From IMG/VR virus record IMGVR_UViG_3300023435_000009: a stretch of 64,000 bases of DNA; one strand, 5' to 3'. Under the pieces are notes generated by a model. That model worked only from the letters and a program-made list of their open reading frames with translations, made no database searches and had not been told where the DNA came from. This DNA is from a virus (Duplodnaviria > Caudoviricetes). The translations under genes and the position numbers were made by a program. Below are positions 21,287 to 54,214 of this stretch, piece by piece. Each line of letters starts with the position of its first letter. Positions within the stretch are counted from its first letter, which is position 1.

Positions 21287-21592
21287 GTGCCTACGGAAGA
21301 GAAACAGATTGTCATGGCAAAGACGCTGGCCCGGCGTTGGTTGGGCAAGGTGGCGTCTGCGGAATACCGTGTCCGAGTCATGTATAGCTCAAGGGAATAC
21401 CGAAATCTTCCGAACCTTCTCAGGGCTTTCAGGGACGGCAAGGTCAGAATCGCAGGGTTGGCACCAGTCAAGGATATGGGCATTCGGGACGAGTTTGACT
21501 TTGTAGAGGTGTGGTCTAGGGACCATGCCGGTCTCCTCCGGCTGGGCCAGTGGTTTGAGAAACAGGGCTTTGATACAACGGGGATCTGGTAA
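21287..21592 (+). CDS. Hypothetical late protein with an LARRWL/KVA motif
   Basis: RBS aaggaggg; MAKTLARRWLGKVASA. Confidence 0.6.
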   Translation: MPTEEKQIVMAKTLARRWLGKVASAEYRVRVMYSSREYRNLPNLLRAFRDGKVRIAGLAPVKDMGIRDEFDFVEVWSRDHAGLLRLGQWFEKQGFDTTGIW

Positions 21593-22275
21593 TGGCAGGA
21601 ATCCAGGAACAAGCCGTTTACACCTTCTCCACCACGGCTGGCGGGGCAACCTACCAGTACGACATCATTGTGGACTCCCAGGGTCTCATCTCCGCTCGGA
21701 ACTTCCGAACTCCGTTGGGGTTGATCGTTGATCCCTACACCACACTGCCCGCAATGGTTCTGGAGGACGTCTACAACGCCCAGGACCAGATCACTCAGCG
21801 GGCGACGACGGCAGAGGTGTCCAGCGGGACGCTGACCTGGGCGGGGGAAACCACCCTGCCCATAGTCATTGCCGGGGGCGTCCTCAACAATACTAACTAC
21901 CGTGTGGTCTACACCACCCCCGATGGGACGCCCTTACAGACCACAGGCAAGACCATCACGGGTTGTACCGCCGAGGCCCCCGCAGCCTACGGGACGGCAC
22001 TCGTACCGATCTCGGTGCCCTACACGGTCCTGGTGGCCACGGCCAGCGTCAGCACCTACGGGGGCACGACGACAATCCTGGCGGCGGATAGCGGCGCTGT
22101 GACGATCACTTTTCCCGTTGCAATGACGACCGAAAACTATCGAGTCGTGCTGACGCCCAACGGCATCTTCCCGGTGTACATCTCGGCCCAGACTAAGGCG
22201 AGCTTCACGATCCAGGTGGGCTACACGATGGTGGTGTTGAGTTCCGTAACCGTTGGTTATGACGTGTTTGTATAG
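21592..22275 (+). CDS. Putative virion structural protein (beta-rich, T/V/A-rich)
   Basis: Two similar beta modules (NNTNYRVVYT / TTENYRVVLT); composition typical of tail or head decoration proteins. Confidence 0.5.
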   Translation: MAGIQEQAVYTFSTTAGGATYQYDIIVDSQGLISARNFRTPLGLIVDPYTTLPAMVLEDVYNAQDQITQRATTAEVSSGTLTWAGETTLPIVIAGGVLNNTNYRVVYTTPDGTPLQTTGKTITGCTAEAPAAYGTALVPISVPYTVLVATASVSTYGGTTTILAADSGAVTITFPVAMTTENYRVVLTPNGIFPVYISAQTKASFTIQVGYTMVVLSSVTVGYDVFV

Positions 22276-22278
22276 GAG

Positions 22279-22524
22279 ATGACGATGATGACTGAACTAG
22301 AACAAGCGTGGGGTCGGACGATGGTAGCAGCTCTGCCGGTGCCCACCTCAGATGTCCGTAGCAACTACCACCAGATGTCTGACGGTGTGTCTGGTCTGGT
22401 AGACGTTGTTGATGCTGATCCGGTACTTCGTCGGGACCGGCGGTTGCAGGTTTTCATGGAGAAGTTGGTGTCGGCGGAGACACATCTGCGCCGACACCTT
22501 GACCGTTATTATCAGTGGGACTGA
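22279..22524 (+). CDS. Hypothetical protein
   Basis: RBS aggag; in operon. Confidence 0.55.
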   Translation: MTMMTELEQAWGRTMVAALPVPTSDVRSNYHQMSDGVSGLVDVVDADPVLRRDRRLQVFMEKLVSAETHLRRHLDRYYQWD

Positions 22525-22580
22525 GCAATGGGGCCTACCACAGAGGTGGCCACTACGTTTGGATTTTTGAGGGGTAACCA

Positions 22581-23843: not shown

Positions 23844-23869
23844 GAGCTTCCTGAAGGATGAATAGGAGT

Positions 23870-25295: not shown

Positions 25296-25304
25296 GAGGA
25301 CGCC

Positions 25305-26860: not shown

Positions 26861-26910
26861 GCGCTAGTCGTCCTATGAGAGTACGCCAGTAGGACGATCG
26901 GAGGTTTGTA

Positions 26911-27549
26911 ATGGGGACCGACAAAGCCAACGCACTCGCCAGGCGATACCTGAAGCAAGCAGGGATGAGCCGGGTGGCCGGAGAGGTCCGGTTTATCAAG
27001 GACCGGGGCGGCGACAAGAATGAGTGGGGGTGGGGTACTCCTGGTCCTTCCGAGCGGGAGATGAACGAGGGATTCACCTTCAATCCCAAGAACTTAAAGC
27101 CTCTGTCAAAGACCTTGCGGTCCACAGTGGCATCTATGGGGCACGCTCTCTCGGCCTACGACACGTTCACCAGGCTCAAGGCATCTCAGGTGTCCCCTGA
27201 CGGTTCCCTGGGCGGCAAAGGCTATATCCAGAAGATCAATGAGATGCGTCGGCAACTCATGAACGCCATCGAAGCGTTGTCCGCTATCTCCGATACCCTG
27301 CACGACGAGATTCACGCCCCCCACTGGGATCCGGTCAAGGAAGACCAGGACAAACGGGAGCGGGAAGAGGTCAAGGACATCTTGGACGACGCTGATGAGA
27401 TCCGAAAGGATCCCGAGGGCTGGGCTGAGGGGGAGGAAGCAGAGATGGACTCCTCCAAAATCCCCGGTGGGATGGATGCGGAGCCAAAGTCGGAACCGAA
27501 GCCGAAACAGGCGTCTAGGATCAGCATGCATCAGAGGAGGGCAAAATGA
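26911..27549 (+). CDS. Hypothetical late protein with an LARRYL/KQA/RVA motif
   Basis: RBS ggagg; helical; acidic C-terminus. Confidence 0.65.
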   Translation: MGTDKANALARRYLKQAGMSRVAGEVRFIKDRGGDKNEWGWGTPGPSEREMNEGFTFNPKNLKPLSKTLRSTVASMGHALSAYDTFTRLKASQVSPDGSLGGKGYIQKINEMRRQLMNAIEALSAISDTLHDEIHAPHWDPVKEDQDKREREEVKDILDDADEIRKDPEGWAEGEEAEMDSSKIPGGMDAEPKSEPKPKQASRISMHQRRAK

Positions 27550-29465: not shown

Positions 29466-29473
29466 GGTGACCG

Positions 29474-30697: not shown

Positions 30698-33600
30698 ATG
30701 GGCTTGTCAAATCTTGTTCGAGATGTAGGTCGAATCCGACAGGGTCCTAGCGAAGTAGCCGACATCATTGCTTTCATTGAGTCCCCCTGGGGACTCAACC
30801 CGGAAAGGTCCTTGTACCTCTTCCCTGTCCAACGGGTGATTTTGAAGGCCCATTATGGGTTGGAACTGGATGACAAGGAAACCTTCCAGATAACGGATTG
30901 GCGGAAGGAGAACGCTCGGAACTTCACCGAGGCGGGATACCTCCGATACCTCTACGATGAGGGCCGCTCCAACATCAAAGAGGTCGACCACGAGCGACGG
31001 GAGATGGTCTTAGCAGTCGGTAGACGCTCAGGCAAGTGTATTCTGGGGGACAGTCTGGTTCTAACAAGTCAGGGCGTTCATAGAATTGATGAGCTGGGCG
31101 ATCCTGAAGGGCCAGAAGTGCAGCCCCTTCAAATTGGGGTTGCCCAAGAAGGTACCGTGCAGTCCCGTTCCGCCTATTTCTACAACGGGGGTGTGAGGAG
31201 CACACGCAAACTGACCACACATTGTGGTTATCAGCTTGGCGGTACGGACAACCATCGGATCAAGGTACTTTCCGAACAGGGCAATATAGAATGGCGCTAC
31301 CTGGCGGATCTCCGAGTGGGGGACGTGGTATGTGTCCATAGAGACACGGACCTATGGGCCACAGAGTATGTAGATTGCAGTCCCTTCCACAACACGGCGG
31401 GACTGAAAAGGTTGGCTTTTCCTCAGACGCTCACTGAGGATTGGGGTCGTTTACTGGGTTATCTGGTAGGGGACGGTCTGTGGAACTACCGAGACAGAAC
31501 GGAAGTCACTGTTGAACATCCTGAAACGTGGGAGACCCTTAAGGATCTTTTCACACAGCTTCTGGGTGGCTACTACATATACAAGGACAAACGCACCCAA
31601 AATACCGGAGCCGTCAAATTCTCCAGTGTGGGGATGCGAAAGTTTCTTCATGATTTAGGATTTCAACTGGGTACGGATCGAGACGCTAAAATGGTACCCT
31701 GGTCGATTCTCCAGTCTCCAAAATCTGTTGTTCAGGCTTTCCTCAGGGGTCTTTTTGAGGCCGATGGTGGTGTCGAGTCTGGGGGCAAAACAGTGTCCTT
31801 CAGTACTGCGAGCAAACGTCTAGCACATGAGGTGCAGACGTTGTTACTTAACCTGGGGGTCGTGAGCAGGGTTAAGCCGAAGATCGTTAAGGGGCGAACT
31901 TATTGGTTGCTGGTCGTTAGGGGTCTTCACAGTAGAAAGGTGTTTGCTGAGAAGGTCGGTTTCGATTCCCACAAAAAGATGGATCCCCTCTTGGCGTCCC
32001 TGGAAAAGGTGAGCAAGGAGGGGGGCAACACGGAGAGTGTCCCTCACCAGCGGCAATGGCTTAACAGGTTGCTCAAGTCCGTCCCCAGGGCTTACGGTAA
32101 TGAGCACACACCTGGTCGTTGTTGGCGGAGGTCAAGACTCCGGGAGGTACTTGGGAATACTATCAAGCCGAGTTCACAGGAGAACGTGACTTACCCTCGG
32201 TTGTTTAAGTTGTTTCCGGTGGCTGAGGACTTGAATGCTGATCCTGTAGTCCTTCAACACTTCCGGGATCTGTTTGATACCCATTATTTTTTTGACGCCG
32301 TGACAGAGATCGAAGAGGGGGAGAACCCTGTTTATGATCTCAATGTTCCTGAGGGTGAGTCCTTTGTAGCCAATGGTTTGACAAATCATAACACGTTCTT
32401 GGCGGCTGCTATTGCAGCATATGAGACCTACAAGCTCCTTCTGAAGGGTGATCCACAATCGTTTTACGGGTTGCCTGCTTCGAACAACGTCCAGATCATC
32501 TCAGTTGCAACAGACAAGGACCAGGCGGGACTCCTCTACCAGGAGGCATCAGGACATTTCCGGAATTGCGGGTTCTTCAGCCCGTACATGGCCAACAACA
32601 CCCAAAGTTACGCTCGGTTCCAGACCCCAAAGGACATCGAGCGGTTTGGTCGGTACGCAGACGATCAGACAGCCAAGGCAACCATTAAAGTGACCTTCCG
32701 GTCCTGTGTTGCGAAGGGGCTTCGTGGTGCCGGTAACTTCGTGGTGATCCTGGATGAGATGGCGCACTTCACGGATGAGGGGCAATCCTCCGCCGACGCC
32801 GTCTACACAGCGGTGACACCGTCCACGGCTACCTTCTCCCCGAAGGCTGAGAGGGTGCTTCCTGAGGGGGACTTTGACCCCCAGGGGGACGGTTCCGAGG
32901 GACGCCACTACCGGGAGGCCACCGACTCCAGTGATGGTCGCATCATCTCCATCTCGTCCCCTCTGGGTCGTCAGGGGATGTTCTACAAGAACTTCCAGCT
33001 TGGGATGAGTGGGGGGAAGGCTGCTGAGAACTATCTGTGCATTCAGGCTCCCACGTGGGAGGTCAACCCCACGGTACCCTCGACGGAGTTGGAAAAGCAC
33101 TACGTCAAGGATCCTGTTGTGTTCTTCACGGAGTTCGGTGCAGAGTTTTCTGACCGGACGAAGGGGTTCATCGAGGACGAGAAGGACTTTATGGCTTGTG
33201 TGCCCCCTACGGCCAAGCCCGCCTCAATGGGGCTTTCACGCCGTCCTCATTATGTTGGACTGGATATCGCTCTGGTGGGTGATGCCTCGGCCATTGCTAT
33301 TGGGCACCTGGACGATGACGACCGGATTGTGCTGGATGTAGTGGACCAGATCAAGGCGGGAGATGGGAAGTACGAGCATCATGAACGGTTGGAGTTCGAT
33401 GACGTTGCTGATTGGGTGGCGGAGTATGCCCGAAAGTTCTTTTTTTCCGAAGGTATGTTTGATCACTGGGCTGGGATCCCCTTTGAGCAGGCCCTCCACA
33501 AGCGGGGGCTTCAGCAGTGCAATGCAGAGCACATGACCCGTAATTTGAACTCTGACATCTTCAAGAATTTCAAGGATATGATGTGGGACAAACGGTTGGT

Positions 33601-35406: not shown

Positions 35407-35413
35407 ACGCTAA
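33998..35413 (+). CDS. tnpB: TnpB RNA-guided nuclease
   Basis: RuvC-I VLGVDKGY, RuvC-II VVVAEDL, VNCAYTSQ, RuvC-III HSDENAARNV; Zn-finger cysteines mostly lost. Confidence 0.85.
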   Translation: MGGFTNVLKVTRILFSKDLNAGKFAVLEEQARRLGQLRSEIWQRFGSINGVGKSDREIRDEWLQQKREFDVPANAWKETLRDAISDVRASREAAKVKVRKTIHCHTKDTAERKHRYTLLKSDNWTTDPYLTRVMRKHWKRGHNHTHNQIIVRADKYRIFELDSRVWLKIPGLTPRKMVTIPLDTTVHPTGTLRLILRDDRVEIHYQIEVKKENRHGDTVLGVDKGYTEVFVDSDGEHHGKELGKLLSSESDYLKTKHQRRNKIKAITERKPHKRANIERNNLGRKKLDRRDRVVKAHVRDKVFKAAHAVVDKAEVVVAEDLTFPISSRKSYGRNMNRRLSAWTKGVIAESLDSVSQRRGSTLALVNCAYTSQVDSRYGVLRGRRRGDSFYCFDGVVLHSDENAARNVLARHYDFEIGRWTSYREVRSILLERTECHRLGLLNQDTSCRPEGLSTVSELPFGHMSYLKRNRR

Positions 35414-42200: not shown

Positions 42201-45200
42201 TGGCTTCGGGTGATCGTACCGTCAGCCAAGATCGCCAACCTCCAGGGTGTGGTGGAAGTCCCGAAAAACACCCACCCAGTCAAGGTGGAGCCGCCCAAGG
42301 CCAAGAGGAAGCAGTTTCCCTTCGTAGGGTACATCGACTTCCAGGGCATCAAGATTGACGTTGAGAATAAGCAGGGGGACGTGCGGAAGGGTGTCAGCCC
42401 TGATGGTGAAGAGTGGGAAACCCACATGTTCCACCATTATGGCGAAATTCGGAATACTGAGGGTACAGATGGCGATAAATTAGATGTTTATGTGGGGGAC
42501 AATCACGACTCTTCCCTGGCGGTCGTTGTCCACCAGCAGGATCCTGACTCAGGCAAGTTCGATGAGGACAAGGTCATGCTCGGCTTTGATTCGGTCGAGG
42601 AGGCCATCGGAGCCTACAAGAAGCAGTACGACCAGCCTGGGTTCTACGTTGAGGGCGAGCACCTGGAGATGCCCATAGGGCAGTTCTGGCGCTGGGTCAA
42701 TGAGGACCGGAACAAGGGTAAGAAGGTCAAGGATGCTGTTGTGCATACAGCGGCCCAGCACGCCCCCTCTACGGCCCCGACGTGGTTTCCCGAGGTAGAG
42801 GGGCGGGTCACAGACATAGCGGCGTCAGGGGACAACGACGAGGGTTGGAAGGCAGCGTCCCAGCGGAGGACTGCCGAGCATAATGACGATTACCAGAGAC
42901 GGGAGAAGGTGCTGCCGGAGGACCTAGACTTTGCCCGGAAGCACCATCTGCCCTTAGAAGAGGATCAGTATTGGGGCACTGTGGTGCCCCTTAAAGCGCT
43001 TTATACAAAGCGTCCCCAATACCACATTTTTGGCATGAACTTAGGTGATCAGAAGCGGTTTGTTTTCGCATCCATTCCTTTGTCCTTGTTAGTCCCGGCT
43101 CAAGAAACTGTCTCGTTGATAGGGCTGCATCGCTACACCGAAGGAAATGTGCGGAGTGACAAGGGTGTACCAGAAGTAGTGCTCTGTGAGTCAGCTTTTT
43201 TTGTCATGGAGGGGCACACCCGGTTGGCCGCAGAGAGGCTCAGAGGGCACTCACGGGCCGAGGTGAAGCTGTTCCTTTATGACGGTAAGAAGTTTCGGAA
43301 GCCTACAGATGAGGATCTGCCCTCATCTGTGCGGCTCCTTAAAAGGAGGCGGAGAGCAACCGCCGCCCAGCGGATAGCAGATCGTTACGTTGAGGGCCTG
43401 CAGATCAACCTGAACGTGGGTGACCCCGTTTTCTACGGGAAATGGAAGTCTTCGCCAGGTACCATCAAGGACTTCAAAACGGATCCCAAGAGCGGTGACC
43501 CTGTTGTGACGGTCGAACCTTATCCGAAGGGACGCAAGAAGCCGAAGGATCTCAAGCTCCTCAAGATCAGGGAGCGGCAGCCCAAGCCAGAAGAGAAGAA
43601 GGCTGGGATGCTGGAGCCGCCTCCGGCGATGGTGAAGTCTGTCCTTGAGTGGGTCATGGCCGTGACACAGAGCACTAAGGCGTTCCGGGCCAAGGAGGAT
43701 TTGGCAAAGGCTCAGGATGTCCTTCAGGCGTTGACAGCACTCAAGCGGGACATGACGAAGCAGCGGGGTGTTCTTGAGGACGCCGTTGCGGATCCGAAGG
43801 TCGGTGTCCGGGCCGAGTACGCAGCCCTTAAGCAGTACGTGGAGACCCTCTTTGAGGACAACCGGAGGACGGCGGTCTTTGTGCAGCGTCTCGTGTGGGG
43901 GCCTCCCAAGTTCAAGAAGTTCACTGAGGCCCACAACAAGGGTGACCTGCCAAGGTATGTGAGGTCAGTCGGTGACGAGGTAGACGAGGCCCTTGCGGAC
44001 AGGATGAAGGCCGTTAAGGGACAGGTCCAGAAGCTCCGGGCCGGGGCCGGTGGTCCCTCAAAGGTGCAGCCAATAATGCCCGGAAAGGAACTGGTAACCC
44101 GGATCCCCGTAGATCTGCGTGGGTGGAAGTACGAGGGGCAGGTTACCGTAGAGAAGGGGGTCAAGGGACTTGTAGATGTCATCACCAAGGCCATGGCCCG
44201 TAAGACGGACATCGATGAGGAGTCCCGGAAGTTCTTTGACGAGTTGATGGAGGGCAACAAGAAGCAGTGGCAGTCTATCGCTGTAAAGTTGGACCCGAAC
44301 CAGACCCCTCACGGGAGATGGCAGTCCGCAACCAAGATGCTGACCCTGAAGTTCGGTGGTCCCGAGAAGGACGCCGCATGGTACCGCCCCCTCATCGAAC
44401 ATGAGTTGCGGCACGTTGCACAGGATCTGATCAATTTCTCCGAGGGTCTGTATGACAGAGGGGGCCGACCTTCTCGTAAGATGCTTACTCCAGACTACAC
44501 CCAGCAGGACGAGGATGCGGCGAGGCAGAAGCTGAGGGCCGTGGGCATCGATCCACGTCAGGTAGCGATTCATCATCTGGACGATGTGGAGTTCTACACG
44601 GACCTGGCAGACGCTGTCGGAGAGTACAAGAGGCAGCAGCCAAAGTTCGACCATCTCCCTCGTAATGAGACCATCAGGTTCTTTGTGGGTGGGAAGGCCA
44701 ATCCTGAGGTGGCACAGGAACTTCGCAGTTTGCGGATGCACCCCCTCCCCTTCTTCACGACGTTGAAGAGGGTTCCTTCCGCAAGGGGTAAGTACCAGAA
44801 GGCTGTGAATGAACTGCTTAAGGCCACGGGCGGGTCCGCTACCAGGGTGGCTCTCCGTTACCTCCAGGGGAAGCAGGCTGGCGTGTTCCAGGGGCCACCG
44901 GCGCTGTTGAAGACCATCCAGGAGTGGGCGCTGGCCACCTACGCCGGACACATCCTCGCTGGGGTTGAGACAGACCTAGAAACGATCCTTGACGCCAAGG
45001 GGCCGATCAAGAGGGCCATCCAGGACATGGGCAAGGGATACGATGAGGTCACTAAGGCGGGCAGTCTTTCCGTTGGCGGATCCTTCAAGTTCCCGATGAC
45101 GGACACCTTCGGCGGTTCCAGTAGTCTCTCCAAGAGTGTCTGGGGGGTCAAAAGGACGGGGGAAGACGTCTACCTGATCGGGAAGGGTGACCGTTCCGTT

Positions 45201-48200
45201 TCCTGGAAGCCCCAACAGTTGCCCTGGCAGTGGGGTCGTGGACCGTGGACCCTTGAGGAAGTCAAAAAGCATCTGATGCCCTACATCAGCAGGGCGACGC
45301 AGAGGATGCGGTCGAAGCTGGATCAACCTGTTGTTGACCCCAACATGCCCAAGGCCGTGGAGTTAACCCTCCTGAAGCGAAAGTGCCTCCAGTACACGAC
45401 TAAGGCCAAGCATTACTCCGGGAAGGCCACCACTAAATTCAAGCTGGATCTGTCCGGTTGGAAGTACCTACCCAATCCCCGAGAGGCCGAAAAGCACATC
45501 AAGGATGAAGAAGGTTGGGATGTGGTGAAGGTGGTGCTGGACTTCAAGGGGAGCCAGACAAAGGGCGGCTACTGGTCCCTCAAGGAGAGGACCCTGGACG
45601 TAGAGATCGGGGCCGGGGCCACCAGCCACTATATCCGAACACCAGAGCAGGCCCGGACGGTGTCTCTGTTCGAGACAGGTATAACGCAGATCACAGGGAC
45701 TTGTCGTCATGAGGTCCAGCATATTGGACAGGATGCCCTGAGGCTCGCTAAGGGATTATCGGAGGACGCAGGTCTCCCTGGCCGCACTCTACGGAACCCG
45801 GACTTCACCCCCGAGGGGCGGAAGCTGCACGTCCCTGAGGGGGATGCTCCTTCTGGGAAGGTACACCCGCTTCGGGATGTGGAGTTCCATACCCGGATCC
45901 AGGACGAGATAGAGAAGTTCTCTCGCTTTGTGCGGAAGGGTGTTGTCGCCAAGGCTAAGATCAAGGAGGCCCTCCATATCTGGGTGGGGGCGTCCCCCGA
46001 GAATGAGATGAAGGATCCAGACGGCAAGGTCATCATGACCACGCAGCAGTTCTTCTACTCCCTGCGGAAGTACGAGAAGGGGAAGTGGCAGAAGGCCGTC
46101 GATGAGTTCAGGAAGGGTCTTATGCGGAAGGGTCTCCGGATCAGTTCTGAGGACATCCAGTCGGCCATGACGCAGAGGGTCAGGCAGGACCAGGAGTACT
46201 TTGCCTCGCTCTTGGGCACTGTCGCTCAGATCCAGTCCGAGATCGATGCTCATCCCGATTATTACTCTACATCGGACAAGAACAGGAAGCTCTGGTTGGC
46301 GTGGAAAGATCTGGCTTTGCTAGGGGATCGGCTGGCCAGGGCCGTGTTGGATCAGAAGAGCATCCCGCCGGGCAAGAATAAAGCCTTCGAGTTGGCTGCT
46401 CGTGCCTTCATCTCTATACGGGGGACTCCCCGTGACATTGAGAAGTGGATGGTGAAGAACAAGCGGCACATCAACCTTCTCAACGACACCGTAGACTGGC
46501 CAGACAAGTCAGAGGACGAGAAGCTCAAGGTGGGGGCCTTTACGGTACACAACACCCTTGGGTTGGAAGGGGCGGACCTTGACCGAAGTAAGAAGAACGT
46601 TCAGAAGGCTGAGTCGCTGATTCGTCGGATGCCCTTTCCGAAGGGACTCAAACAGGTTCTTTATGGGGACGTTTACATAGTAGCTCGGCTAAACAAAACC
46701 AAAACGTGGGCCTTCTACTACCCTCGGGACGACAACGTCTATGTCAGGGCTGACACCAAGGGTGTGTTGGGAGAGACTCACAGCCTTATTCACGAACTGG
46801 CTCATCGCTATTGGGAACAGTTCGCATCCGTTTCCAAGAAGCACGCCTGGATCCGCCACCACGCCCATATGTCCGGCAAGAGCATGCCCGCCGAGAAGAT
46901 GCCGATGCCGAACGTTGGGGAGACTCTCCCCCTCAAGATTCCGGGTGCCCCTCGGGGGTTCGAACCTGTGGTTTCCCATGTCCATGCCGGGAAGTACTGG
47001 TTCGATGTGCCCTCCAAGGATGGGAAGACGACCAGGACGATGAACTACCCCGTCCACGAGATGGCGAAGTTCCTTTATGACCGGGACGAGAGGACAAAGC
47101 GGCGGGAGACCTTCCCGACCCCCTATGCAGCGAAGAACGCTGAGGAACACTTCTGTGAATCCACGGCATTGAGGGCATTGGGCAAACTGAAGGGGTCAAA
47201 CTTGGATGAGTACGACCGAATCTGGGGTGGCTCAGGGGGGCGGGTGGCCAGTCAGGACTCATCAGTAGAGGCCAAAGTGGACTTCTCTGGCACTCGTTGG
47301 GTAGTGGCACCCCCGTCCAAGTTGGACGAGGCACAGGCTGAAACCGTTTGGCAGGTTTATCATACATCCTATGGGAACCTTGGTGAACACATCTCAAACC
47401 TGTCGGAGCTGTTGTCCAAGTACCAGTTGTTCTGGCTCGTGGATGTAGACGGGGATGAGAAACCGGATGCGTTCATTGCCTATAAAAAGACCCCAGCGGG
47501 TAAGAAGATAGGTGTTATCGGTTCTGACGGGTCTCCGTTGGCCAAGCGACTAGTGGTACGGAAACTCCTCCAGTTGTTTCAGGGCAACGGGTACTACGTC
47601 GAGGCTTCGGGACGACCGGCACAAATGCTAGACTCCGCTGGGGTGCCCCATGTGACGGATCAGGCTGATGTGGAGGCCGTGATGGCTCCGAAAAAGATCC
47701 ACTGGTTGGGGGACGGTAAGTACACCAGGGCCATTGGTGGTTTGGGGACGAAGGAGAAACGCTTGTACGGACATCCCAGGATCCCACGAGCACGTAAGCA
47801 GGCACGTCGGTTGGCCACCCGCTGGCTCAGGTCCTCTGCGAGCATCCCGGCCCAGCAGATTGCAGCACGTTATCTGGAGGCCGGTGCCTACCCCACAAGC
47901 CGTTTGGTGGAGGGTCCACTCATTGACGGGCATATCCCACCGAGAACCCCACAGGGACGGCCTCCGGCGTATTTATACCGCTCTATGCCGGTGGCGGAGT
48001 ACGAGGCAGCAGTGTCTCGGGGTCAGATGCGGGGGCGTCCGCTCCACGCCGCAGGCGAGCCTGTTTTCTACACCCTCAACCCAGGCGAGAACGTCCTGGT
48101 CGCAATAGAGTACCGTGACCGAGATGGCTGGGACTCCAAGGTGGGTATGGGAGGCAGCACCATTTACGCCATCACCCACGACGCTATTCCGATGTCGAGA

Positions 48201-48335
48201 GTTGCTGAGTTGGCACGGGGGGCCAAGGGGGATCTGAAACGGTGGAAGTCCGCTGCCAAGTTCAAGGACAAGAAGAAGGTCAAGAAGCAGGATGGCGGCG
48301 AGATGACCGGAGGTAAAGCTGATGTGTTCTTCTAA
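39237..48335 (+). CDS. Giant polyvalent protein (2H phosphoesterase, CCA/poly(A)-type nucleotidyltransferase, four HExxH zincin modules, InPase, ParB-like, SH3-like, possible GNAT- and ART-like domains)
   Basis: PHST/PHVT; VVGGAVRN..IKDIDVV..RRDFSFN..FSDDPSRM; HEMGH 41802, HELRH 44400, HEVQH 45708, HELAH 46791; HYGEIRNTEGTDGDKLDVYVG..DEDKVMLGF; VMEGHTRL. Confidence 0.85.
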   Translation: MKRADAENGKKTGDRSDVGLFIPLPGDLASQFPDLGSNDQSVPHSTFLFVGSVPQGREERLLEVVRGVLAELSGPVRAQLASDIEYFVHPAKQRRVAVLPVRFSHDLAAIRWKLRDALVDDGFDVDDSFPLIYRPHVTLEYLNDLDETYVGTVPSGGWSLNGIEVWGLPRVVEVPFSSVSKLAHRHVESKAHHRSVALMKFLSGVARKLGVGNDVYVVGGAVRNFVLDPTGLKYPIKDIDVVIDPVALRRPDASDWFAQKVKRAIPVDVSLVTNSYGVSIVTITGDWILDGVSMAGEVIEIANARTESYGGTAGKGYKPHLVEPATIEEDVKRRDFSFNTLLWRMHDLANGPDQVAILDLTGCGMKDLQDGWMRCPSKPDRTFSDDPSRMVRTIKFMLKYGFKISSEVKASIKKNAPKLKNIPPGHLSNMIIETFFTPGVGKKALLEMDKLGLLEVTRDIARKDKKFRQALANWADAHASVEFIFDLMDLGMPSGKRLGFLKPAQKDRVREITVQMDADGSDAFVRLLEQPGKVLDMPGLITEYGFKGAEIRALVEAARTALLDEPLLASSGRKWEDKIRRRLGKPAGKTAGNEAHVVASKPVVIDEVHLKKLKKDFLTFTRQIKKPKDYDQARYMADAYTRWRVQFEDFIKRLWKYMDGLHWRHPNLFSENDRDYWRRVVGEDTWVLQTENFPLQHPDDYWTEEQCVAEFEQRRGPWVRKVQRGAREAWSRLDDFVSWMETNRLQALQTEGDKVTLEYPEVYKENIDGFQLTFKGIEPDDRAEVKGFLAGLKRYKALAAKRMPLLLRRKLPIVVNSMGEVGLEWGGQYHTRYIDFNLASSSSSGIQNRTVHVLAHEMGHHIFKSLGSKSRKFWDTLIRGDMEPLDLKKIYPLMKAGEDLQWLAFDIEEKDPILALQLTGVSEDWRWKHNVPTKEKVKEFIDGGEVQIHVPKRPITYYASKNPEEAFCEVVGLLVANGPGSVDNEILHWLRVIVPSAKIANLQGVVEVPKNTHPVKVEPPKAKRKQFPFVGYIDFQGIKIDVENKQGDVRKGVSPDGEEWETHMFHHYGEIRNTEGTDGDKLDVYVGDNHDSSLAVVVHQQDPDSGKFDEDKVMLGFDSVEEAIGAYKKQYDQPGFYVEGEHLEMPIGQFWRWVNEDRNKGKKVKDAVVHTAAQHAPSTAPTWFPEVEGRVTDIAASGDNDEGWKAASQRRTAEHNDDYQRREKVLPEDLDFARKHHLPLEEDQYWGTVVPLKALYTKRPQYHIFGMNLGDQKRFVFASIPLSLLVPAQETVSLIGLHRYTEGNVRSDKGVPEVVLCESAFFVMEGHTRLAAERLRGHSRAEVKLFLYDGKKFRKPTDEDLPSSVRLLKRRRRATAAQRIADRYVEGLQINLNVGDPVFYGKWKSSPGTIKDFKTDPKSGDPVVTVEPYPKGRKKPKDLKLLKIRERQPKPEEKKAGMLEPPPAMVKSVLEWVMAVTQSTKAFRAKEDLAKAQDVLQALTALKRDMTKQRGVLEDAVADPKVGVRAEYAALKQYVETLFEDNRRTAVFVQRLVWGPPKFKKFTEAHNKGDLPRYVRSVGDEVDEALADRMKAVKGQVQKLRAGAGGPSKVQPIMPGKELVTRIPVDLRGWKYEGQVTVEKGVKGLVDVITKAMARKTDIDEESRKFFDELMEGNKKQWQSIAVKLDPNQTPHGRWQSATKMLTLKFGGPEKDAAWYRPLIEHELRHVAQDLINFSEGLYDRGGRPSRKMLTPDYTQQDEDAARQKLRAVGIDPRQVAIHHLDDVEFYTDLADAVGEYKRQQPKFDHLPRNETIRFFVGGKANPEVAQELRSLRMHPLPFFTTLKRVPSARGKYQKAVNELLKATGGSATRVALRYLQGKQAGVFQGPPALLKTIQEWALATYAGHILAGVETDLETILDAKGPIKRAIQDMGKGYDEVTKAGSLSVGGSFKFPMTDTFGGSSSLSKSVWGVKRTGEDVYLIGKGDRSVSWKPQQLPWQWGRGPWTLEEVKKHLMPYISRATQRMRSKLDQPVVDPNMPKAVELTLLKRKCLQYTTKAKHYSGKATTKFKLDLSGWKYLPNPREAEKHIKDEEGWDVVKVVLDFKGSQTKGGYWSLKERTLDVEIGAGATSHYIRTPEQARTVSLFETGITQITGTCRHEVQHIGQDALRLAKGLSEDAGLPGRTLRNPDFTPEGRKLHVPEGDAPSGKVHPLRDVEFHTRIQDEIEKFSRFVRKGVVAKAKIKEALHIWVGASPENEMKDPDGKVIMTTQQFFYSLRKYEKGKWQKAVDEFRKGLMRKGLRISSEDIQSAMTQRVRQDQEYFASLLGTVAQIQSEIDAHPDYYSTSDKNRKLWLAWKDLALLGDRLARAVLDQKSIPPGKNKAFELAARAFISIRGTPRDIEKWMVKNKRHINLLNDTVDWPDKSEDEKLKVGAFTVHNTLGLEGADLDRSKKNVQKAESLIRRMPFPKGLKQVLYGDVYIVARLNKTKTWAFYYPRDDNVYVRADTKGVLGETHSLIHELAHRYWEQFASVSKKHAWIRHHAHMSGKSMPAEKMPMPNVGETLPLKIPGAPRGFEPVVSHVHAGKYWFDVPSKDGKTTRTMNYPVHEMAKFLYDRDERTKRRETFPTPYAAKNAEEHFCESTALRALGKLKGSNLDEYDRIWGGSGGRVASQDSSVEAKVDFSGTRWVVAPPSKLDEAQAETVWQVYHTSYGNLGEHISNLSELLSKYQLFWLVDVDGDEKPDAFIAYKKTPAGKKIGVIGSDGSPLAKRLVVRKLLQLFQGNGYYVEASGRPAQMLDSAGVPHVTDQADVEAVMAPKKIHWLGDGKYTRAIGGLGTKEKRLYGHPRIPRARKQARRLATRWLRSSASIPAQQIAARYLEAGAYPTSRLVEGPLIDGHIPPRTPQGRPPAYLYRSMPVAEYEAAVSRGQMRGRPLHAAGEPVFYTLNPGENVLVAIEYRDRDGWDSKVGMGGSTIYAITHDAIPMSRVAELARGAKGDLKRWKSAAKFKDKKKVKKQDGGEMTGGKADVFF

Positions 48336-49152
48336 CTTTATCGGACAGGTTTATTCCTTGCATGATCCTGTGACACAGGAGTTGCGTTATGTTGGACAAA
48401 CAACACACACACTGGAACATCGTTTGAAACAACACTTGAAGCAGTTGAAAAAAAGCACACACAAAAACAACTGGATTCGGTCTCTTCTTCCTAGTCGACC
48501 TTTGATTCGGCACGTTTGTTTCGCTGCCTCTCAGTCTGAATTGGATCTTCTGGAGATAGGCCACATCGCAAAAACAAAAACCTCTGGGTGTCGTCTGACT
48601 AATGCAACTACAGGGGGGAGGGGAGGGAGGCATTCTGCTGAGACCATCGCAAAAATGAGAGTGGCACACACAGGAAAAGTGTTTTCACAGGAGGCTCGAC
48701 AAAACATGTCCAAGGCAAAAAAGGGTCATCCTGTTTCGGAAGAGACCAGACGTAAAATTGCTGCCGCAAATACAGGACATGTGCCATCGCTGGACACTCG
48801 AACCAAATTAAGTTTAGCACTTCTTGGCCATACCGTTACAAGTGAGACGAGACAACGCATCTCAGAGGGTAACAAGGGCAAAGAGCGTACTGCTGCTTTT
48901 CGAAGACATCTATCGAAAATTAACCTTGGAAAGAAACACACGGAAGAGTCTAGGCTTCGAATGTCGGGGCGGGTGATGCCTGAGGAGACCCGACAGAAAA
49001 TTTCTAGGGCATTGAAAGGGCGAGCAAAAGAGGGGATGTCCGAAGAAACCAAGCGTAAGATTTCGGATGCCAAAAAAGGAAAGACACTGTCCTTTGAGAC
49101 CAGGCAACGAATGTCAGAGGCGCAAAAAGTCCGATGGGCAAAACAAAAATGA
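48322..49152 (+). CDS. GIY-YIG homing endonuclease with NUMOD3 repeats
   Basis: VYSLHDP...RYVGQT...RLKQH; repeated SEETRRKI/SETRQRIS units; AT-rich; ggaggt RBS. Confidence 0.88.
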   Translation: MCSSNFIGQVYSLHDPVTQELRYVGQTTHTLEHRLKQHLKQLKKSTHKNNWIRSLLPSRPLIRHVCFAASQSELDLLEIGHIAKTKTSGCRLTNATTGGRGGRHSAETIAKMRVAHTGKVFSQEARQNMSKAKKGHPVSEETRRKIAAANTGHVPSLDTRTKLSLALLGHTVTSETRQRISEGNKGKERTAAFRRHLSKINLGKKHTEESRLRMSGRVMPEETRQKISRALKGRAKEGMSEETKRKISDAKKGKTLSFETRQRMSEAQKVRWAKQK

Positions 49153-52100
49153 AGACCTTTTTTGATGATGAAAGGGTGGTGCGCCGGATTGCAACCCTGT
49201 ACGTATGCCGGGTTGCACAGGATCACAAATACAAAAAAAGGCACAAGTCCCCTGGCGGAACTAAGATATACGAGTACAGCGACCGTCATGTGAACGACCG
49301 GAACAAGGGCAAAGCCCAGAAGGTTGAAAAGCTTCGGCATGGCATCACCAAGCTCCGGGGTCAGGTCCATAAGGATCTCAAGTCCAAGGATGAGAAGACC
49401 CGTGCAACGGCCCTGGCTGTTGGTCTCATGGACGCCACCTACGAAAGAATTGGTAATCCGACTTCTGCCAAAGAGGGCCATTTTGGGGTCACTGGATGGA
49501 AGGCCCAACACATCACATTTTCCGGGGGCACAGCCACCATCAAGTACGTTGGGAAATCCGGCGTGAAGCATGAGAAGGTCATCAGCACCCCAGGTTCTGT
49601 GGCGGCGCTCAAGGCTGCTGTGAAGGGTAAGAAGCCCGGAGACACCGTGGTGGACGCCTCAGCAGAGGATGTGAACGGATACCTCAAGCCCTTCGGTGTC
49701 ACCGCCAAAGATATTCGTGGCTTTCATGCTAATACAGAGATGCAAACCCGGCTCAAGGCTATCCGGTCCAAGGGCGGCAAGCTGCCCACCGACAAAAAGG
49801 AGCGAGAGAAGGCCCTCAAGGAGGAGTTCAAGAAGGCCCTGGCTGAGACAGCCGAGGCGGTAGGGCATGAGGCAGCTACGTTGAAGAGCCAGTACCTTGT
49901 GCCAGGTTTGGAGTCCGATTTCCTTAAGGATGGAACGGTCAACGACAAGATGGTGAAGAAAGGCTCAGAGTTGGCACACCGCTGGTTGAAGACGGCCATC
50001 ATCAACATCAACAACGCCACCGATGGTCCCGAAGGAGATCTGATGTTGAGGGGCGACTACGGGCTCCAGTCCAGCCTGACTTACTACGAGCAGGCGATCA
50101 TGCAGGATTTGATCATCCACCACCACCCGATCCTGAACACTCCCGAGGGGTATACGCTCAGGGGGCACAAGGTCGGCCCCAGTGCTGTGTGTGAGTTGAT
50201 GGGAGCCGGATACCTGGAGGACCATGGCGGGGAGATATACTTGTCCCCTATGTACGAAGCCAAGCAGAAGCTCTACCGGACAGCCTCTTCATCCAGACTG
50301 ATCCTGTTGTATGAGCGGCACTACCCACCCGAGGACAGGTCCATCGAGCATTACGCTGCTTGGCGCAACAGCCTGACCCTCCCGATGGCCCGGACGGCAG
50401 CCTATGACATCATCAGACACTGCCCCCATTGTCAGTGCGTCCTGCACGACGGTCCTCGCTACCATGAGCACTGCGACGACTGTGGGTACGACGTAGATTT
50501 CCCAGGCGGACGGGAGCGTCTGAAGGACGGGGAATGGACACCCATCCCCGAGGATGACCCCCGGCTGGTCCTGTTCAAAGAGAAGAAGGCAACGCAACTG
50601 GATGCTTTCGAGAAGATGTGGCGGACGGCAACCAAGACCCACGGGGAACGTGAGGACGAGGAAGCCGAGCGGTTGCTACGCCCCGAGCCTAAGAAGAAGC
50701 CCCCCCGGAATGATCTCCGCCGGGAGCAGATGAACACGGACAAGGACAAGGACACAGAGTCGGAGGGTGCTGACGGGGACAAGGACCTCTCTTTGAATTA
50801 CAAGCGGATTGCCCTGCGCTGGCTCGCTGCGGCTGGTGAACACAAGCCCGGCGAGGTGTGGCAGACGGAGTCCGGTTGGGCAGGGCAGAACCCAGACGGT
50901 GTCCCTCATACCTTCAAGGATCGGACGAAAGCCGAAGCCTACGCCAAGGGTCAGTCCGAGGCCCCTGAGGACGAGGAGAAAGCTGCCCCTGAGGAGGAGC
51001 AGTCCCCTGAGACCACCCCTCAGCCTGAGGAACCGAAGAAGAAGCCGAAGCCCCGGAAGGATCCTGAGCAGGTTCGATTTGACCGGAAGGTCCAACGGGA
51101 GGTGAAGAACCTGAGGGCAGAACGTAAGGGTGTCAAGGACGCCAAGGTGGAGCTTCGTCAGGCCAAAAAGGATCTCAAGGAGGCTCGTGCAGAACTCAAG
51201 GCAACCCAGAAGGGAACGCCTGGGTACGTCATAGCTAAGGATACAGTCGACACTGCCAAGGAGTTGGTGGACCAGGCCCAGGAACAGTTGGACACGGCAA
51301 CGGAGTCTTTCGAGGCCACCAAAAAGCGGGTGGAGGAGATAAAGTCAGAGCGGGTGGAACGCTACCCCGACAGCAATACGGAGTTGGGCCGTATTCGTTT
51401 GCTCCTTCGAGAGTTTGATCAGACGTCAGATGATGACAATGACGGGAGTATGAGGGCCGAGACGCTTGAGGATAAACTCTCCAAGTACGACGTTGCTTCT
51501 CAGGAGCAGGCAGCCTCTGCTTTCCAGAAGGAAAGCACCTCCTTGGCCCATCAGGAGTTAACCCCTGAGTTGGTTCAGGAGATCGTGGCAGCCGAGAAGC
51601 AGCTTAAAAAGAAGGGCCTGTCCGCCGAGGTTTTCGGGGAGTTGACTGCCCGTGTGATGTTCGGGCACAGCATCCTGGCGAACCCCACCAAGGTTTCGCC
51701 TATGCGTGGAGTCGAGGTGGATGGTGCGGAGCAGGCGAAGATCGCCAGAGACTCCTACGATCACTACTCTAAGCTCAATCCCGAACTCCGGGCCAACGCA
51801 TTCCGGCAGGCAGCGGAGGAACTCAAAAAGCACCCGGACGATTCACCCGATAGTGTCCATCTGTCCCGTGTGGTGGATGGTCTCTACCTGGCCTCAGTAG
51901 CGGCTGGGGATGATGACTCCGTGAGGGAGACGGACGGGAAGAGACTCATTCCTGAGCCGTCCGGCATCTTCAAGGCCCTGGTTAAGATGCAGAAGGGCGA
52001 CGACAGTTTTGGGAGCGAATCAGGTGACCTTGTAGATCTCATGTCTACTGAGTTCTATGGACCCAAGGGAAGGGCTGCACTGCGGACCCGGATCTCAGAA

Positions 52101-52718
52101 TTGGATGACAATGACCTGACCAACCTGTTTACGGGAGGGGATCAGGAACTGGATCGGATGATCCAGGACGCCCTTTCCAAAATGACAGAGCCTTGGCAGC
52201 GGGAGTTGCTCAGGGGTCTGATGCAGGATCTGACCCTGGACTCAATGACGACCCAGCATGCAATCCTGACGAGTCAGGCGGGGGCTGAGGAAGGCCCCGA
52301 AACTCTGAAAAACCAGGGCACCCGGTCCATGCCTAAGACCCCGGAGGAGATGGACTACACGCTGACGGACTATCGGCGTCGGGCAGCAGATGCTGCTTCG
52401 GATGAGATGGAGGCTCTCTTGGCGTGCCTGAGGGGGCATAAGGATTCTGAGACCGCTCGTCAGGCGTGTCAGGAGAAGGCAAATGCGTACCGGATCAAGT
52501 CCCACGCTGGGTTCCTGCAACTCGTAACTGATGAGTTTGGTATCCGAGATGAACTAGATCCTTTCCTGGTTCAGTTACGAACGATGTTGGATCGTCAGGA
52601 TCTCGCAGAACTTGATTTCAAGTTTGTTTCTGAGGGAGCAAAAACGGCGTTTACACGGAAAACAGTCCGTGCAGTTCAATCCTCTGCCTATACGGATGAC
52701 ATAAAGGCGAGGGGCTGA
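49149..52718 (+). CDS. Polyvalent protein with an N-terminal type IB topoisomerase catalytic domain
   Basis: ERIGN (R), YVGKSG (K), TAKDIR (R), AVGH (H), SQYL (Y) pentad; followed by unrelated modules and a coiled coil. Confidence 0.8.
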   Translation: MKTFFDDERVVRRIATLYVCRVAQDHKYKKRHKSPGGTKIYEYSDRHVNDRNKGKAQKVEKLRHGITKLRGQVHKDLKSKDEKTRATALAVGLMDATYERIGNPTSAKEGHFGVTGWKAQHITFSGGTATIKYVGKSGVKHEKVISTPGSVAALKAAVKGKKPGDTVVDASAEDVNGYLKPFGVTAKDIRGFHANTEMQTRLKAIRSKGGKLPTDKKEREKALKEEFKKALAETAEAVGHEAATLKSQYLVPGLESDFLKDGTVNDKMVKKGSELAHRWLKTAIININNATDGPEGDLMLRGDYGLQSSLTYYEQAIMQDLIIHHHPILNTPEGYTLRGHKVGPSAVCELMGAGYLEDHGGEIYLSPMYEAKQKLYRTASSSRLILLYERHYPPEDRSIEHYAAWRNSLTLPMARTAAYDIIRHCPHCQCVLHDGPRYHEHCDDCGYDVDFPGGRERLKDGEWTPIPEDDPRLVLFKEKKATQLDAFEKMWRTATKTHGEREDEEAERLLRPEPKKKPPRNDLRREQMNTDKDKDTESEGADGDKDLSLNYKRIALRWLAAAGEHKPGEVWQTESGWAGQNPDGVPHTFKDRTKAEAYAKGQSEAPEDEEKAAPEEEQSPETTPQPEEPKKKPKPRKDPEQVRFDRKVQREVKNLRAERKGVKDAKVELRQAKKDLKEARAELKATQKGTPGYVIAKDTVDTAKELVDQAQEQLDTATESFEATKKRVEEIKSERVERYPDSNTELGRIRLLLREFDQTSDDDNDGSMRAETLEDKLSKYDVASQEQAASAFQKESTSLAHQELTPELVQEIVAAEKQLKKKGLSAEVFGELTARVMFGHSILANPTKVSPMRGVEVDGAEQAKIARDSYDHYSKLNPELRANAFRQAAEELKKHPDDSPDSVHLSRVVDGLYLASVAAGDDDSVRETDGKRLIPEPSGIFKALVKMQKGDDSFGSESGDLVDLMSTEFYGPKGRAALRTRISELDDNDLTNLFTGGDQELDRMIQDALSKMTEPWQRELLRGLMQDLTLDSMTTQHAILTSQAGAEEGPETLKNQGTRSMPKTPEEMDYTLTDYRRRAADAASDEMEALLACLRGHKDSETARQACQEKANAYRIKSHAGFLQLVTDEFGIRDELDPFLVQLRTMLDRQDLAELDFKFVSEGAKTAFTRKTVRAVQSSAYTDDIKARG

Positions 52719-52785
52719 GTGCCCAGCGCTTACCTCCTTTGGGAGGAGCTAATCCGGTCGGCAGACCACATGAGGAGGAATTCCG

Positions 52786-53622
52786 ATGACTGAAATGACG
52801 AAGAAGGGCGCTCAGGTAGTGACCAATGATCTGGATCGGGTTGCGACCCTGTTCCAGCAGGATTGGGCCACGCTGGGTATTCCGCAGAAGCTGGCCGTGG
52901 ATTTCGCATACCGTTGTGATCTTCTGAGCGACGCCGTCGAGAAGAGAGCTGGGGTGCCGAAGACCGCAGCGCCGGACTTCAACCCTGAGGAAATCGGGGA
53001 GGAGAAGGCCGGGCCACTCGAAGACGAGCTGGACGAGGCTTTCATGAAGGGCGAGTTCACCCAGCAAGAGAACCGGGAACTGCGTGAGCGGTACCAGGAC
53101 GGCGACCTGGGCATCACCCCCAACCTCGACCCACAGGCCCCCGCCAGCGGCAAGCAGGGTTTCGAGCAGGTCGGCAGGGACAGCCTGAGCAGCAGGCTCG
53201 CAGCGCTGTGTACCCGTGTGCAGGGTCATGCCACCCGGTGTGGATCATCTGATCCGGCCCTTGCCGGACGCATGTTCCGGCTCGCCAGTGCCCTCCTGGA
53301 CGTGCAGCGGGACGTGCTGACGGGGAAGACCTCGGCGGACCACGCTGTTCGGACGCTCCAGGCCAGCAATCTCCTGAACACTGACAGCCCCTCGGACAAG
53401 TTCGCAGCGCTGGTCGCCCATGCAACCAGGGTGGCGAAGAAGTCCGAGGACGAAGACGAGGACGTTCCTGACGAGGGCAAGGAAGCCGGAAAGATCCCAC
53501 CCCAGTTCAAGGAATTCCTCGATAAAAAGAAGGACGAGAAGGGCGACGAGGACAAGGATGACGACAAGGCCGACGACAAGGGCGACAAGAAGGCCCACGG
53601 CTACAACCTGTTCGCCCAGTAA
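52786..53622 (+). CDS. Putative capsid assembly/scaffold-like protein
   Basis: RBS gaggagg; highly GC3-biased; acidic and Lys-rich tail with GKIPPQF. Confidence 0.5.
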   Translation: MTEMTKKGAQVVTNDLDRVATLFQQDWATLGIPQKLAVDFAYRCDLLSDAVEKRAGVPKTAAPDFNPEEIGEEKAGPLEDELDEAFMKGEFTQQENRELRERYQDGDLGITPNLDPQAPASGKQGFEQVGRDSLSSRLAALCTRVQGHATRCGSSDPALAGRMFRLASALLDVQRDVLTGKTSADHAVRTLQASNLLNTDSPSDKFAALVAHATRVAKKSEDEDEDVPDEGKEAGKIPPQFKEFLDKKKDEKGDEDKDDDKADDKGDKKAHGYNLFAQ

Positions 53623-53632
53623 GGAGCCCAGC

Positions 53633-54214
53633 ATGACATCCACCAAATCCGCAGCTTACGTGGATTTCCAACAGAGGGCTAAGGAGTTCTCTGTCGGGGA
53701 TGAGGTGTCACCGCTGTTCTCCCTCCAGGTCATCGTAGGACGTGTCGTAGCCGTGTGGCCCGCCATCGGAATGGTGGACGTTGAGTGGCCGCACGGCTCC
53801 GAACGAGTCCCCGTAGAAGACCTCCAGCGGGGGAATGGTTCCGAGTTTACCCCACCCGAGACGGACAGCGCTAATGTCCCTGGTGGTGAGGGTACGGTTT
53901 CAGTCCCCGGTGGTCCCAAGGACGCTGTCACCAGGGTCGCCACTGCTTATCTGAAAAAGTCCCTTTACTGGGCAGCCCGTGATCGTCACTACAAGGCAAC
54001 AGCCGAGGAGATCACCAGCGGGCAGTTCAACTGTCCCAAGTGCAAGGGTGCCTTCCTTCGTCCTGCCACGTACAAGCGGGCGGAGGGTGTGAGTGATCGT
54101 CTGCTGGCCTGTCCGGAGTGCCTGTTCCTCATCAAGAGGAGCGCCCTGATAGGGCATCCTGACTACATTGACGATGGGATTGACGGTGTCCAGGCGGATA
54201 GGAAGGTGGTCTAA
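53633..54214 (+). CDS. Hypothetical protein (SH3-like plus Zn ribbon)
   Basis: FSVGDEV...GRVVAVW..MVDVEW; CPKC...CPEC; RBS aaggag. Confidence 0.6.
   Translation: MTSTKSAAYVDFQQRAKEFSVGDEVSPLFSLQVIVGRVVAVWPAIGMVDVEWPHGSERVPVEDLQRGNGSEFTPPETDSANVPGGEGTVSVPGGPKDAVTRVATAYLKKSLYWAARDRHYKATAEEITSGQFNCPKCKGAFLRPATYKRAEGVSDRLLACPECLFLIKRSALIGHPDYIDDGIDGVQADRKVV

Follow-up and report, generated by a model that had tools for sequence, protein, structure and literature searches.

The sequence analysed here (the window) is a stretch of 64,000 nucleotides (nt) from the virus record IMGVR_UViG_3300023435_000009 (Duplodnaviria; Caudoviricetes). Nearly all of its genes lie on the plus strand. The first 21 kb hold replication-type genes, and in the late region the gene order is portal protein, cargo, an acidic protein, a Zn-ribbon protein, a protease, an acidic repeat protein and the major capsid protein (MCP). 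Our subject is a short peptide motif, here called the tag, that recurs in otherwise unrelated late proteins of this phage, among them two giant cargo proteins of 3032 and 1194 amino acids (aa) and two small proteins of 101 and 212 aa. The coordinates of all these features are collected in Table 1. The relatives of the window are uncultured huge phages of 300-536 kb; the closest cultured phage by protease similarity is the Tunturiibacter phage Tunturi_5, with 40% identity across the protease domain. The shared motif is real in this phage and in its relatives.

A sequence-only reading of the window had drawn attention to the motif by quoting eleven peptides. All 11 are present in plus-strand frames where that reading had placed them, save that KLAHRHVESKA starts at 39777 and not at 39778. 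We scanned 20,164 aa of window proteins with the strict pattern [ILV]A.R[WY][LV], and compared the result with 500 shuffles made protein by protein. There are eight matches, whereas the shuffles average 0.16 and never give more than 2. All lie between nt 21326 and 50808, four of them in the 3032-aa protein, two in the 1194-aa protein and one each in the 101-aa and 212-aa proteins. The 6,380 aa upstream of 21287 contain no strict match, in agreement with the earlier statement that the helix is missing from the early replication proteins, so that the enrichment holds over shuffled and early proteins alike; the 2,843 aa after 54214 also have none. Three of the quoted sites (LAHRHV, IATLYV and VATAYL) are degenerate and fall outside the strict pattern. 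At the orthologous positions the relatives have motif-like variants, several of them canonical. In the window together with 21 related loci there are 19 strict matches in plus-strand open reading frames (ORFs) and none in minus-strand ORFs, and the related loci hold the motif at orthologous places.

The strict pattern was written after the sites had been seen, which leaves room for an artefact of chance or composition, and independent checks were run for that reason. A weight matrix was trained only on one relative, G003, whose genome is complete at 435,804 bp, and was then applied to the window. It found seven sites at 10 bits or more (0.67 expected) and five at 14 bits or more (0.03 expected), every one of which was on the earlier list. 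In G003 itself the pattern R[ILV]A.R[WY][LVI] is found 15 times where 0.10 is expected. Positions that played no part in the pattern are conserved too: of 35 instances, 27 have R at -1 and 20 have A at -3. Given an excess of 50- to 150-fold, a matrix from another genome that cross-validates the sites and the conservation of unselected flanking positions, we consider a chance or compositional origin highly improbable. The same is true of an in-frame element acting at the level of the DNA, such as a recombination linker. There is synonymous codon variation at every position of the motif, with the codons for Arg, Val and Ala varying freely, and selection is therefore at the level of the protein; this rules out a DNA-level element, and the opposite strand has no strict matches. 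The sequence LARRWLGK also brought to mind a twin-arginine (Tat) signal. This was rejected, since in most copies that position has just one Arg, many of the copies are internal or near a C-terminus, and the motif is not followed by a hydrophobic h-region.

The consensus comprises 11 residues, A-x-R-[VIL]-A-x-R-[WY]-[LVI]-x-A. The positions that are unconserved in the logo, -2, +2 and +6, are spaced four residues apart, and thus define one free face of a helix. The conserved residues cover about three quarters of the helix surface, so that the helix is probably seated in the groove of one common and highly conserved partner. The earlier description of the motif as an amphipathic helix is supported, and the helix is conserved. 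In an AlphaFold model of the 1194-aa protein (mean predicted local distance difference test score, pLDDT, of 66) the three tag copies form lone helices at residues 13-29, 274-293 and 550-567. The confident domains of this model are the type IB topoisomerase (TopIB, 55-273), a small domain (569-611) and a helical domain (643-1164); each tag helix lies in a segment of pLDDT <50 between confident domains, so that when the motif is set against the modelled domain boundaries all three copies prove to be in low-confidence linkers.

More generally, the placement of the tag at termini and in inter-domain linkers of unrelated late proteins is upheld; the earlier reading had named N-termini and domain junctions. 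The copies are outside Pfam domains, and the edges of BLASTP blocks in comparisons with nine relatives coincide with them. The tagged proteins are diverse, including 2H, a CCA/PolyA_pol-type nucleotidyltransferase, InPase, two TopIB enzymes, a HAD_SAK_1 RNA-repair phosphatase, a C39-like peptidase and DUF4240. In G003, 8 of the 15 copies are no more than 25 residues from a protein terminus, where random placement gives 2.7. Five copies are within 14 residues of the C-terminus, with just 2-7 residues after them, and three are near the N-terminus. All 15 are on the same strand as the head genes. We note that G003 has a cluster of tagged stand-alone enzymes (73589-74566, 81025-84036 and 83979-84575), comprising the C39-like peptidase, a second TopIB and the HAD_SAK_1 phosphatase. 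This suggests that RNA-repair functions are recurrent in the tagged set.

Table 1. Positions of the genes, tags and junction tripeptides of the window that are discussed in the text.
Position (nt)	Strand	Feature	Remarks
20571-21224	+	Sigma factor gene	Precedes the late region
21326-21343	+	Tag LARRWL, residue 14 of the 101-aa protein (gene 21287-21592)	19.7 bits; then GKVA, then a conserved domain
26935-26952	+	Tag LARRYL, residue 9 of the 212-aa protein (gene 26911-27549)	SRVA directly before a conserved GEVRF domain
30698-33967		Large terminase with intein	Late region
33998-35413		Transposase gene	Between terminase and portal genes
35950-39201	+	Portal protein gene with intein	Directly upstream of the 3032-aa cargo gene
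39237-48335	+	3032-aa protein, putative polyvalent cargo	2H phosphoesterase 41-147, PolyA_pol/CCA 215-373, InPase 1031-1154 (Pfam PF18823)
39780-39797	+	Degenerate tag LAHRHV, aa 182	Between 2H and CCA modules
41001-41009	+	Junction K-T-A, aa 589-591 (in GKTA)	End of CCA module; 6 BLASTP alignment ends at aa 584-591
43374-43391	+	Tag IADRYV, aa 1380	15.4 bits; 8 alignment starts at aa 1365-1392
43596-43604	+	Junction K-K-A, aa 1454-1456 (in EKKA)	End of small module; 6 alignment ends at aa 1447-1460
44847-44864	+	Tag VALRYL, aa 1871	19.7 bits; stretch without homologous block in relatives
47241-47249	+	Junction R-V-A, aa 2669-2671 (in GRVA)	3 alignment ends at aa 2664-2667
47811-47876	+	Tag pair LATRWL...IAARYLEA (starts 47811, 47859)	11.9 and 14.1 bits
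48322-49152	+	GIY-YIG/NUMOD3 homing endonuclease gene	Splits the cargo gene
49134-52718	+	1194-aa protein, putative cargo	Type IB topoisomerase (Topoisom_I aa 55-251) and further modules
49188-49217	+	Degenerate N-terminal tag IATLYV, aa 19, then junction R-V-A, aa 26-28	Segment pLDDT about 30
49971-49997	+	Tag LAHRWL, aa 280, then junction K-T-A, aa 286-288	Directly after TopIB; 9 alignment ends or starts at aa 276-295
50622-50630	+	Junction R-T-A, aa 497-499	Before conserved TKTHGE block; 6 alignment starts at aa 489-499
50808-50825	+	Tag IALRWL, aa 559, the best copy, with invariant W563	25.3 bits; conserved in 10 of 10 aligned sequences
52641-52649	+	Junction K-T-A, aa 1170-1172	End of C-terminal helical module; 5 alignment ends at aa 1161-1173
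52786-53622	+	278-aa acidic scaffold-like protein	Tag-like RVATLF at aa 18
53633-54214	+	Zn-ribbon protein, about 193 aa	Tag-like VATAYL (nt 53936), 10.8 bits, within a longer conserved helix
54214-55791	+	Head maturation protease, 525 aa	Protease domain, then an acidic linker and a conserved helical C-terminal domain
55099-55107	+	K296-x-A298 (KAAS or similar) of the protease	Invariant in 15 of 15 orthologues; end of protease domain, start of variable acidic linker
55788-57089	+	433-aa acidic repeat protein, probable scaffold	Repeated KEA and KKA, z 2.3
57375-58109		244-aa protein	
58122-59000	+	HK97-fold MCP, 292 aa	PHROG 2522, E 9e-47

The two giant proteins are modular, and their modules are shuffled among the relatives. 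In nine relatives the 3032-aa and 1194-aa proteins correspond to a single ORF of 1,425 to >2,740 aa, within which the BLASTP blocks are reordered, lost or gained; residues 600-1365 of the 3032-aa protein, including InPase, are absent from most relatives. In the window the homing endonuclease gene has overlaps of 14 and 19 nt with the two halves of the cargo gene, of which the downstream one still has a tag at the N-terminus thus created. At that position (aa 19 of the 1194-aa protein) 8 of the 9 relatives have RVAAKY-type sequences, and at the degenerate tag of aa 182 in the 3032-aa protein the relatives have RLASRYV, RVASTHL and RMASKYI. The small module directly after the tag at aa 1380 is present in all nine relatives compared.

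Directly upstream of InPase the 3032-aa protein contains an HExxH motif, LAHEMGHH, at about aa 853-860 (approximately nt 41790-41815). The region gives only sub-threshold Reprolysin-like matches in Pfam (E 0.05-0.2), and a homologous block is found in just one relative (L013). It may be an autoprocessing domain of the MPTase type.

Polyvalent phage proteins are a published class into which the 3032-aa protein fits. As described by Iyer, Burroughs, Anand, de Souza and Aravind (2017; PMC5512222), polyvalent proteins of phages and conjugative elements are multi-enzyme proteins encoded beside portal and virion genes and predicted to be packaged and injected, for which InPase is a signature domain. 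Likewise, at least two unrelated enzyme domains share one polypeptide here (2H, PolyA_pol and InPase, with the Topoisom_I protein fused in relatives), and the portal gene is directly upstream, with the protease and MCP genes downstream. The difference is that MPTase autoprocessing is proposed there, and that neither a shared docking helix nor a [KR]-x-A junction code was found in the available part of PMC5512222.

The tripeptide [KR]-x-A marks the borders of the modules. We defined a border as a cluster of at least three BLASTP alignment ends, which gave 11 internal borders in the two giant proteins in comparison with the nine relatives. A tag is present at four of these, one in the 3032-aa protein (aa 1380) and three in the TopIB protein (aa 19, 280 and 559). 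Of the seven that are tag-free, six carry [KR]-x-A, namely GKTA 588-591, EKKA 1453-1456, GRVA 2668-2671, RTA 497-499, KAA at about 614 and KTA 1170-1172. Taken together, [KR].A is found four residues or less from 10 of the 11 borders, where random placement gives 3.2 (P < 0.0002), and [KR][TV]A is found at six (0.93 expected). For the control tripeptides [DE].A, [KR].L, [KR].G and [KR].S the counts do not exceed chance. The sequence-only reading had proposed a polyprotein cleavage code of this kind. The junctions GKTA, EKKA and GRVA that it quoted do coincide with clusters of alignment ends, and the association with borders stands; its further claim that the tripeptide is generally frequent does not, as there is no overall enrichment (z 1.3 in the cargo and 1.4 in the early proteins), and a global excess is thereby ruled out. 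Only [KR]TA is in excess in the cargo (9 against 2.7 expected). Neither is a helix followed by a downstream cut a general rule. A flanking [KR].A is present at 13 of 24 tags (6.2 expected; P 0.0005) and 11 are unflanked, the five G003 copies near the C-terminus have only 2-7 residues after them, and at C-terminal tags [KR]-x-A is often upstream, not downstream.

These data bear on the possibility that the tag is real but [KR]-x-A is not cut by the prohead protease, being a matter of linker composition, while the giant proteins remain intact, as is the case for the virion RNA polymerase of N4, or are processed by a peptidase with the embedded HExxH motif. The tripeptide is indeed degenerate and not enriched overall, the HExxH motif is present in the giant protein, and PMC5512222 gives both a proposal of MPTase autoprocessing for polyvalent proteins and the packaging of N4 virion RNA polymerase in unprocessed form. 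Yet linker composition would not be expected to produce association with 10 of 11 borders while four control tripeptides are flat. At the RTA border Ala is retained before TKTHGE in 8 of 10 sequences (Gly in the other two) although the upstream sequence is not alignable. Moreover, most relatives have the junction motifs yet lack the HExxH block, and the protease domain ends in an invariant K-x-A. We therefore regard this alternative as unlikely.

At the site of aa 559 some relatives have a separate NYK[KR][VR]A, a spacer and then the tag, while in the window, as in some of the relatives, the two are merged into one sequence. In one relative (L004) NYKKRA is set apart from the tag by an inserted domain of about 95 aa. 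Tag and junction tripeptide are thus separable elements that are able to overlap, and since R-[VIL]-A of the tag itself fits [KR]-x-A, overlap is possible within a single copy. Such merging, and the fit of the first three tag residues to the junction pattern, would also be expected if the prohead protease recognised or docked on the whole motif as one extended site, with the cut at R-[VIL]-A and x-R-[WY]-L as its P' side or exosite; the motif would then mark substrates and would not be a capsid address. The protease of this clade has a conserved additional C-terminal helical domain, and Tunturi_5, whose 287-aa protease is without the extension, is also without the tag in the 40 kb around its head genes, but that comparison is a single case. 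Against this possibility the periodicity is that of a helix with a free face at -2, +2 and +6, and not that of an extended strand in contiguous pockets, and cutting at the copies located 2-7 residues from the C-terminus would free only a tiny peptide. We think it quite unlikely.

The two small proteins provide a further view of the border between tag and domain. In the orthologues of the 101-aa protein in G001, G002 and G003 the tag is kept at the same place, and a small residue (Ala or Ser) is kept at the equivalent border position with a basic residue at P3 or P4. Two orthologues of the 212-aa protein have KVAARH or QVAARH, then KTA before GEVRF, so that [KR]-[VT]-A is retained immediately before this domain. 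Thus [KR]-x-[AS] is conserved at the border in both families. Together with K296-x-A298 of the protease, a candidate self-cleavage site, the conserved border Ala or Ser lends support to cutting after Ala.

The gene at 54214-55791 had been called a prohead protease, and it matches PHROG 18299 (head maturation protease) with E 5e-12. Alignment of orthologues reveals several invariant His and Ser residues. The protease domain also has four invariant cysteines (C189, C196, C199 and C210) that look like an inserted Zn-ribbon, and after the acidic linker the C-terminal helical domain (aa 412-511) is modelled with pLDDT 72-90. Of the proteins encoded upstream, the 278-aa acidic protein has the strongest excess of [KR].A among window proteins (11 against 4.4 expected; z 3.8). 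In 17 of 21 related loci the gene just before the protease encodes the Zn-ribbon protein, which has no detectable similarity to its positional counterpart in Tunturi_5. Its ORF was listed as one of 264 aa at 53420-54214, which probably starts at Met72 (nt 53633); the 70 residues at the head of the listed ORF are rich in Arg and Thr, and overlap, out of frame, the acidic tail of the 52786-53622 product. LAGLIDADG domains are present in the inteins of both the large terminase (30698-33967) and the portal (35950-39201) genes, and an 855-aa ORF directly after the capsid gene (59154-61721) has LAGLIDADG homing endonuclease and DNA methyltransferase-like PHROG matches. DNA matches to the Lu11, Erwinia and Burkholderia jumbo phages fall on the low-complexity acidic repeat of 55788-57089, and carry no information on kinship.

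We propose that the tag is a docking or address helix for loading polyvalent cargo into the prohead, with Ala-type cuts at the junctions, and we put the probability of this at about 0.5. A capsid address is suggested by the setting between portal and protease, by the tag-like helices in the two small proteins encoded just before the protease, by the absence of the tag from the replication module and by the precedent of the capsid targeting sequence (CTS) of phage T4. According to this proposal the clade would have fixed a short docking helix to the N-terminus, the C-terminus or the inter-domain linkers of many unrelated enzymes, including modules of a >4,000-aa polyvalent protein whose coding region is flanked by the genes for portal and prohead protease. 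The helix would recruit cargo into the assembling prohead by docking with the MCP, or with a component of the core or scaffold. The prohead protease would then probably cut after Ala of [KR]-x-A at the module borders, freeing the modules and detaching the tags, akin to the release of scaffold from the capsid shell by herpesvirus assemblin. We thus infer packaging, a receptor, cleavage and the protease responsible.

A number of observations weigh against this proposal. Tunturi_5 has no tag within 40 kb around its head genes. The three-residue junction pattern is weak, lacking at 11 of the 24 tags and not enriched overall, and the HExxH motif means that another peptidase could process the cargo. 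The protease has no sequence match in Pfam or the PDB, its family assignment being that of the PHROG match, and its AlphaFold model is poor, with an overall pLDDT of 47 and values <50 through most of the protease domain. Lastly, some of the tagged genes of G003 are distant from the head module, at 154, 179 and 252-255 kb. This would be in keeping with a motif that binds a hub outside the capsid, such as a phage or host complex, a chaperone or a degradation adaptor, by which enzymes are gathered or timed in the cytoplasm. Short terminal motifs common to many enzymes are typical of hub binding, and most of the tagged proteins are nucleic-acid enzymes. However, at the rate of the late region 4.7 copies would be expected in the replication module of the window, and there are none. 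Furthermore, copies are densest in the giant protein, whose gene lies between those of portal and protease, and in the two small proteins directly upstream of the protease, and in G003 all 15 copies share the strand of the head genes. A cytoplasmic hub therefore seems rather improbable.

The T4 prohead protease, gp21, by which the CTS is removed, cuts after Glu. The T4 CTS is a short peptide common to unrelated proteins that encapsidates them into the scaffolding core (PMC3012670), and the giant phage SPN3US cuts after A-x-E (PMC10052503). The tag is similar to the CTS (found on IPI-III and Alt) in that one short peptide is carried by otherwise unrelated proteins of a single phage, with genes in or near the head module and the prohead protease gene adjacent. 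It differs in being N-terminal, C-terminal and internal, in a consensus that, compared unaligned, has no resemblance to the T4 sequence, in the lack of a conserved Glu after the tag in the logo, the candidate cut being after Ala with K/R at P3, and in cargo that includes polyproteins of >4,000 aa. By analogy the system looks like the T4 CTS in function, but we would not class it with the CTS, given that there is no sequence likeness, that the tags are not only N-terminal and that there is no Glu-type site. It would combine the idea of the CTS with polyvalent proteins and a candidate Ala-type cut like that of herpesviruses.

Encapsulin cargo-loading peptides and the encapsulation peptides of microcompartments are short terminal peptides on diverse enzymes that dock inside a protein shell, which in encapsulins has the HK97 fold. 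The consensus is different from that of the tag, and in the present case docking would occur in a virus with packaging and ejection of DNA. In herpesviruses the R-site frees the protease domain from its C-terminal extension and the M-site removes the scaffold tail that binds the MCP; the predicted sites in pseudorabies virus (PrV) are YLQA-T and VQA-S (PMC4498786). The invariant K-A-A-S at the end of the protease domain resembles the R-site, and the tags flanked by [KR]-x-A resemble the M-site. P3 is basic here and V/L/I in the herpesviruses, and the clients here are enzymes and not the scaffold alone.

The MCP is a candidate for the receptor of the tag. It belongs to family PF25209 and is 86-94% identical across the relatives, in which identity is only 40-60% for the protease, the scaffold-like protein and other head proteins. 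The homologues number 2,075 at E <= 1e-5, and the best 120 are all at least 86% identical. Such conservation is as expected of a hub that reads the tag of many clients, and may be taken as a hint. Prediction of a complex of the MCP with the 101-aa tagged protein gave a score of 0.01 against a mark of 0.32, a result that is uninformative either way. In its broadest form the proposal would be that a portable 11-residue helix docks on a near-invariant HK97-fold MCP across a large clade of huge phages (>2,000 MCP homologues), so that dozens of enzymes and polyproteins of >4,000 aa are loaded, with the modules separated by an Ala-cutting protease. This is possible, though we hold it to be doubtful. 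We found no published description of the motif in the literature searched, coverage of which is incomplete.

If the tag is a capsid address, the proteins that these uncultured phages of 400-540 kb carry into the host could be read from sequence. They would include tRNA- and RNA-repair enzymes, pyrophosphatase, topoisomerases and peptidases, pointing to pre-emptive counter-defence. The tag could also serve as a portable element, placed at either terminus, by which foreign proteins are brought into HK97-type capsids. Cutting after Ala by a prohead protease would add to the known parallels in capsid maturation between phages and herpesviruses. Were docking on the MCP across the clade to be true, the extreme conservation of that protein would be explained by many clients reading the same site, and the tag alone would predict the injected proteome of uncultured phages. 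The injected set would then comprise RNA-repair enzymes (2H, CCA-adding and HAD_SAK) and topoisomerases, delivered ahead of gene expression.

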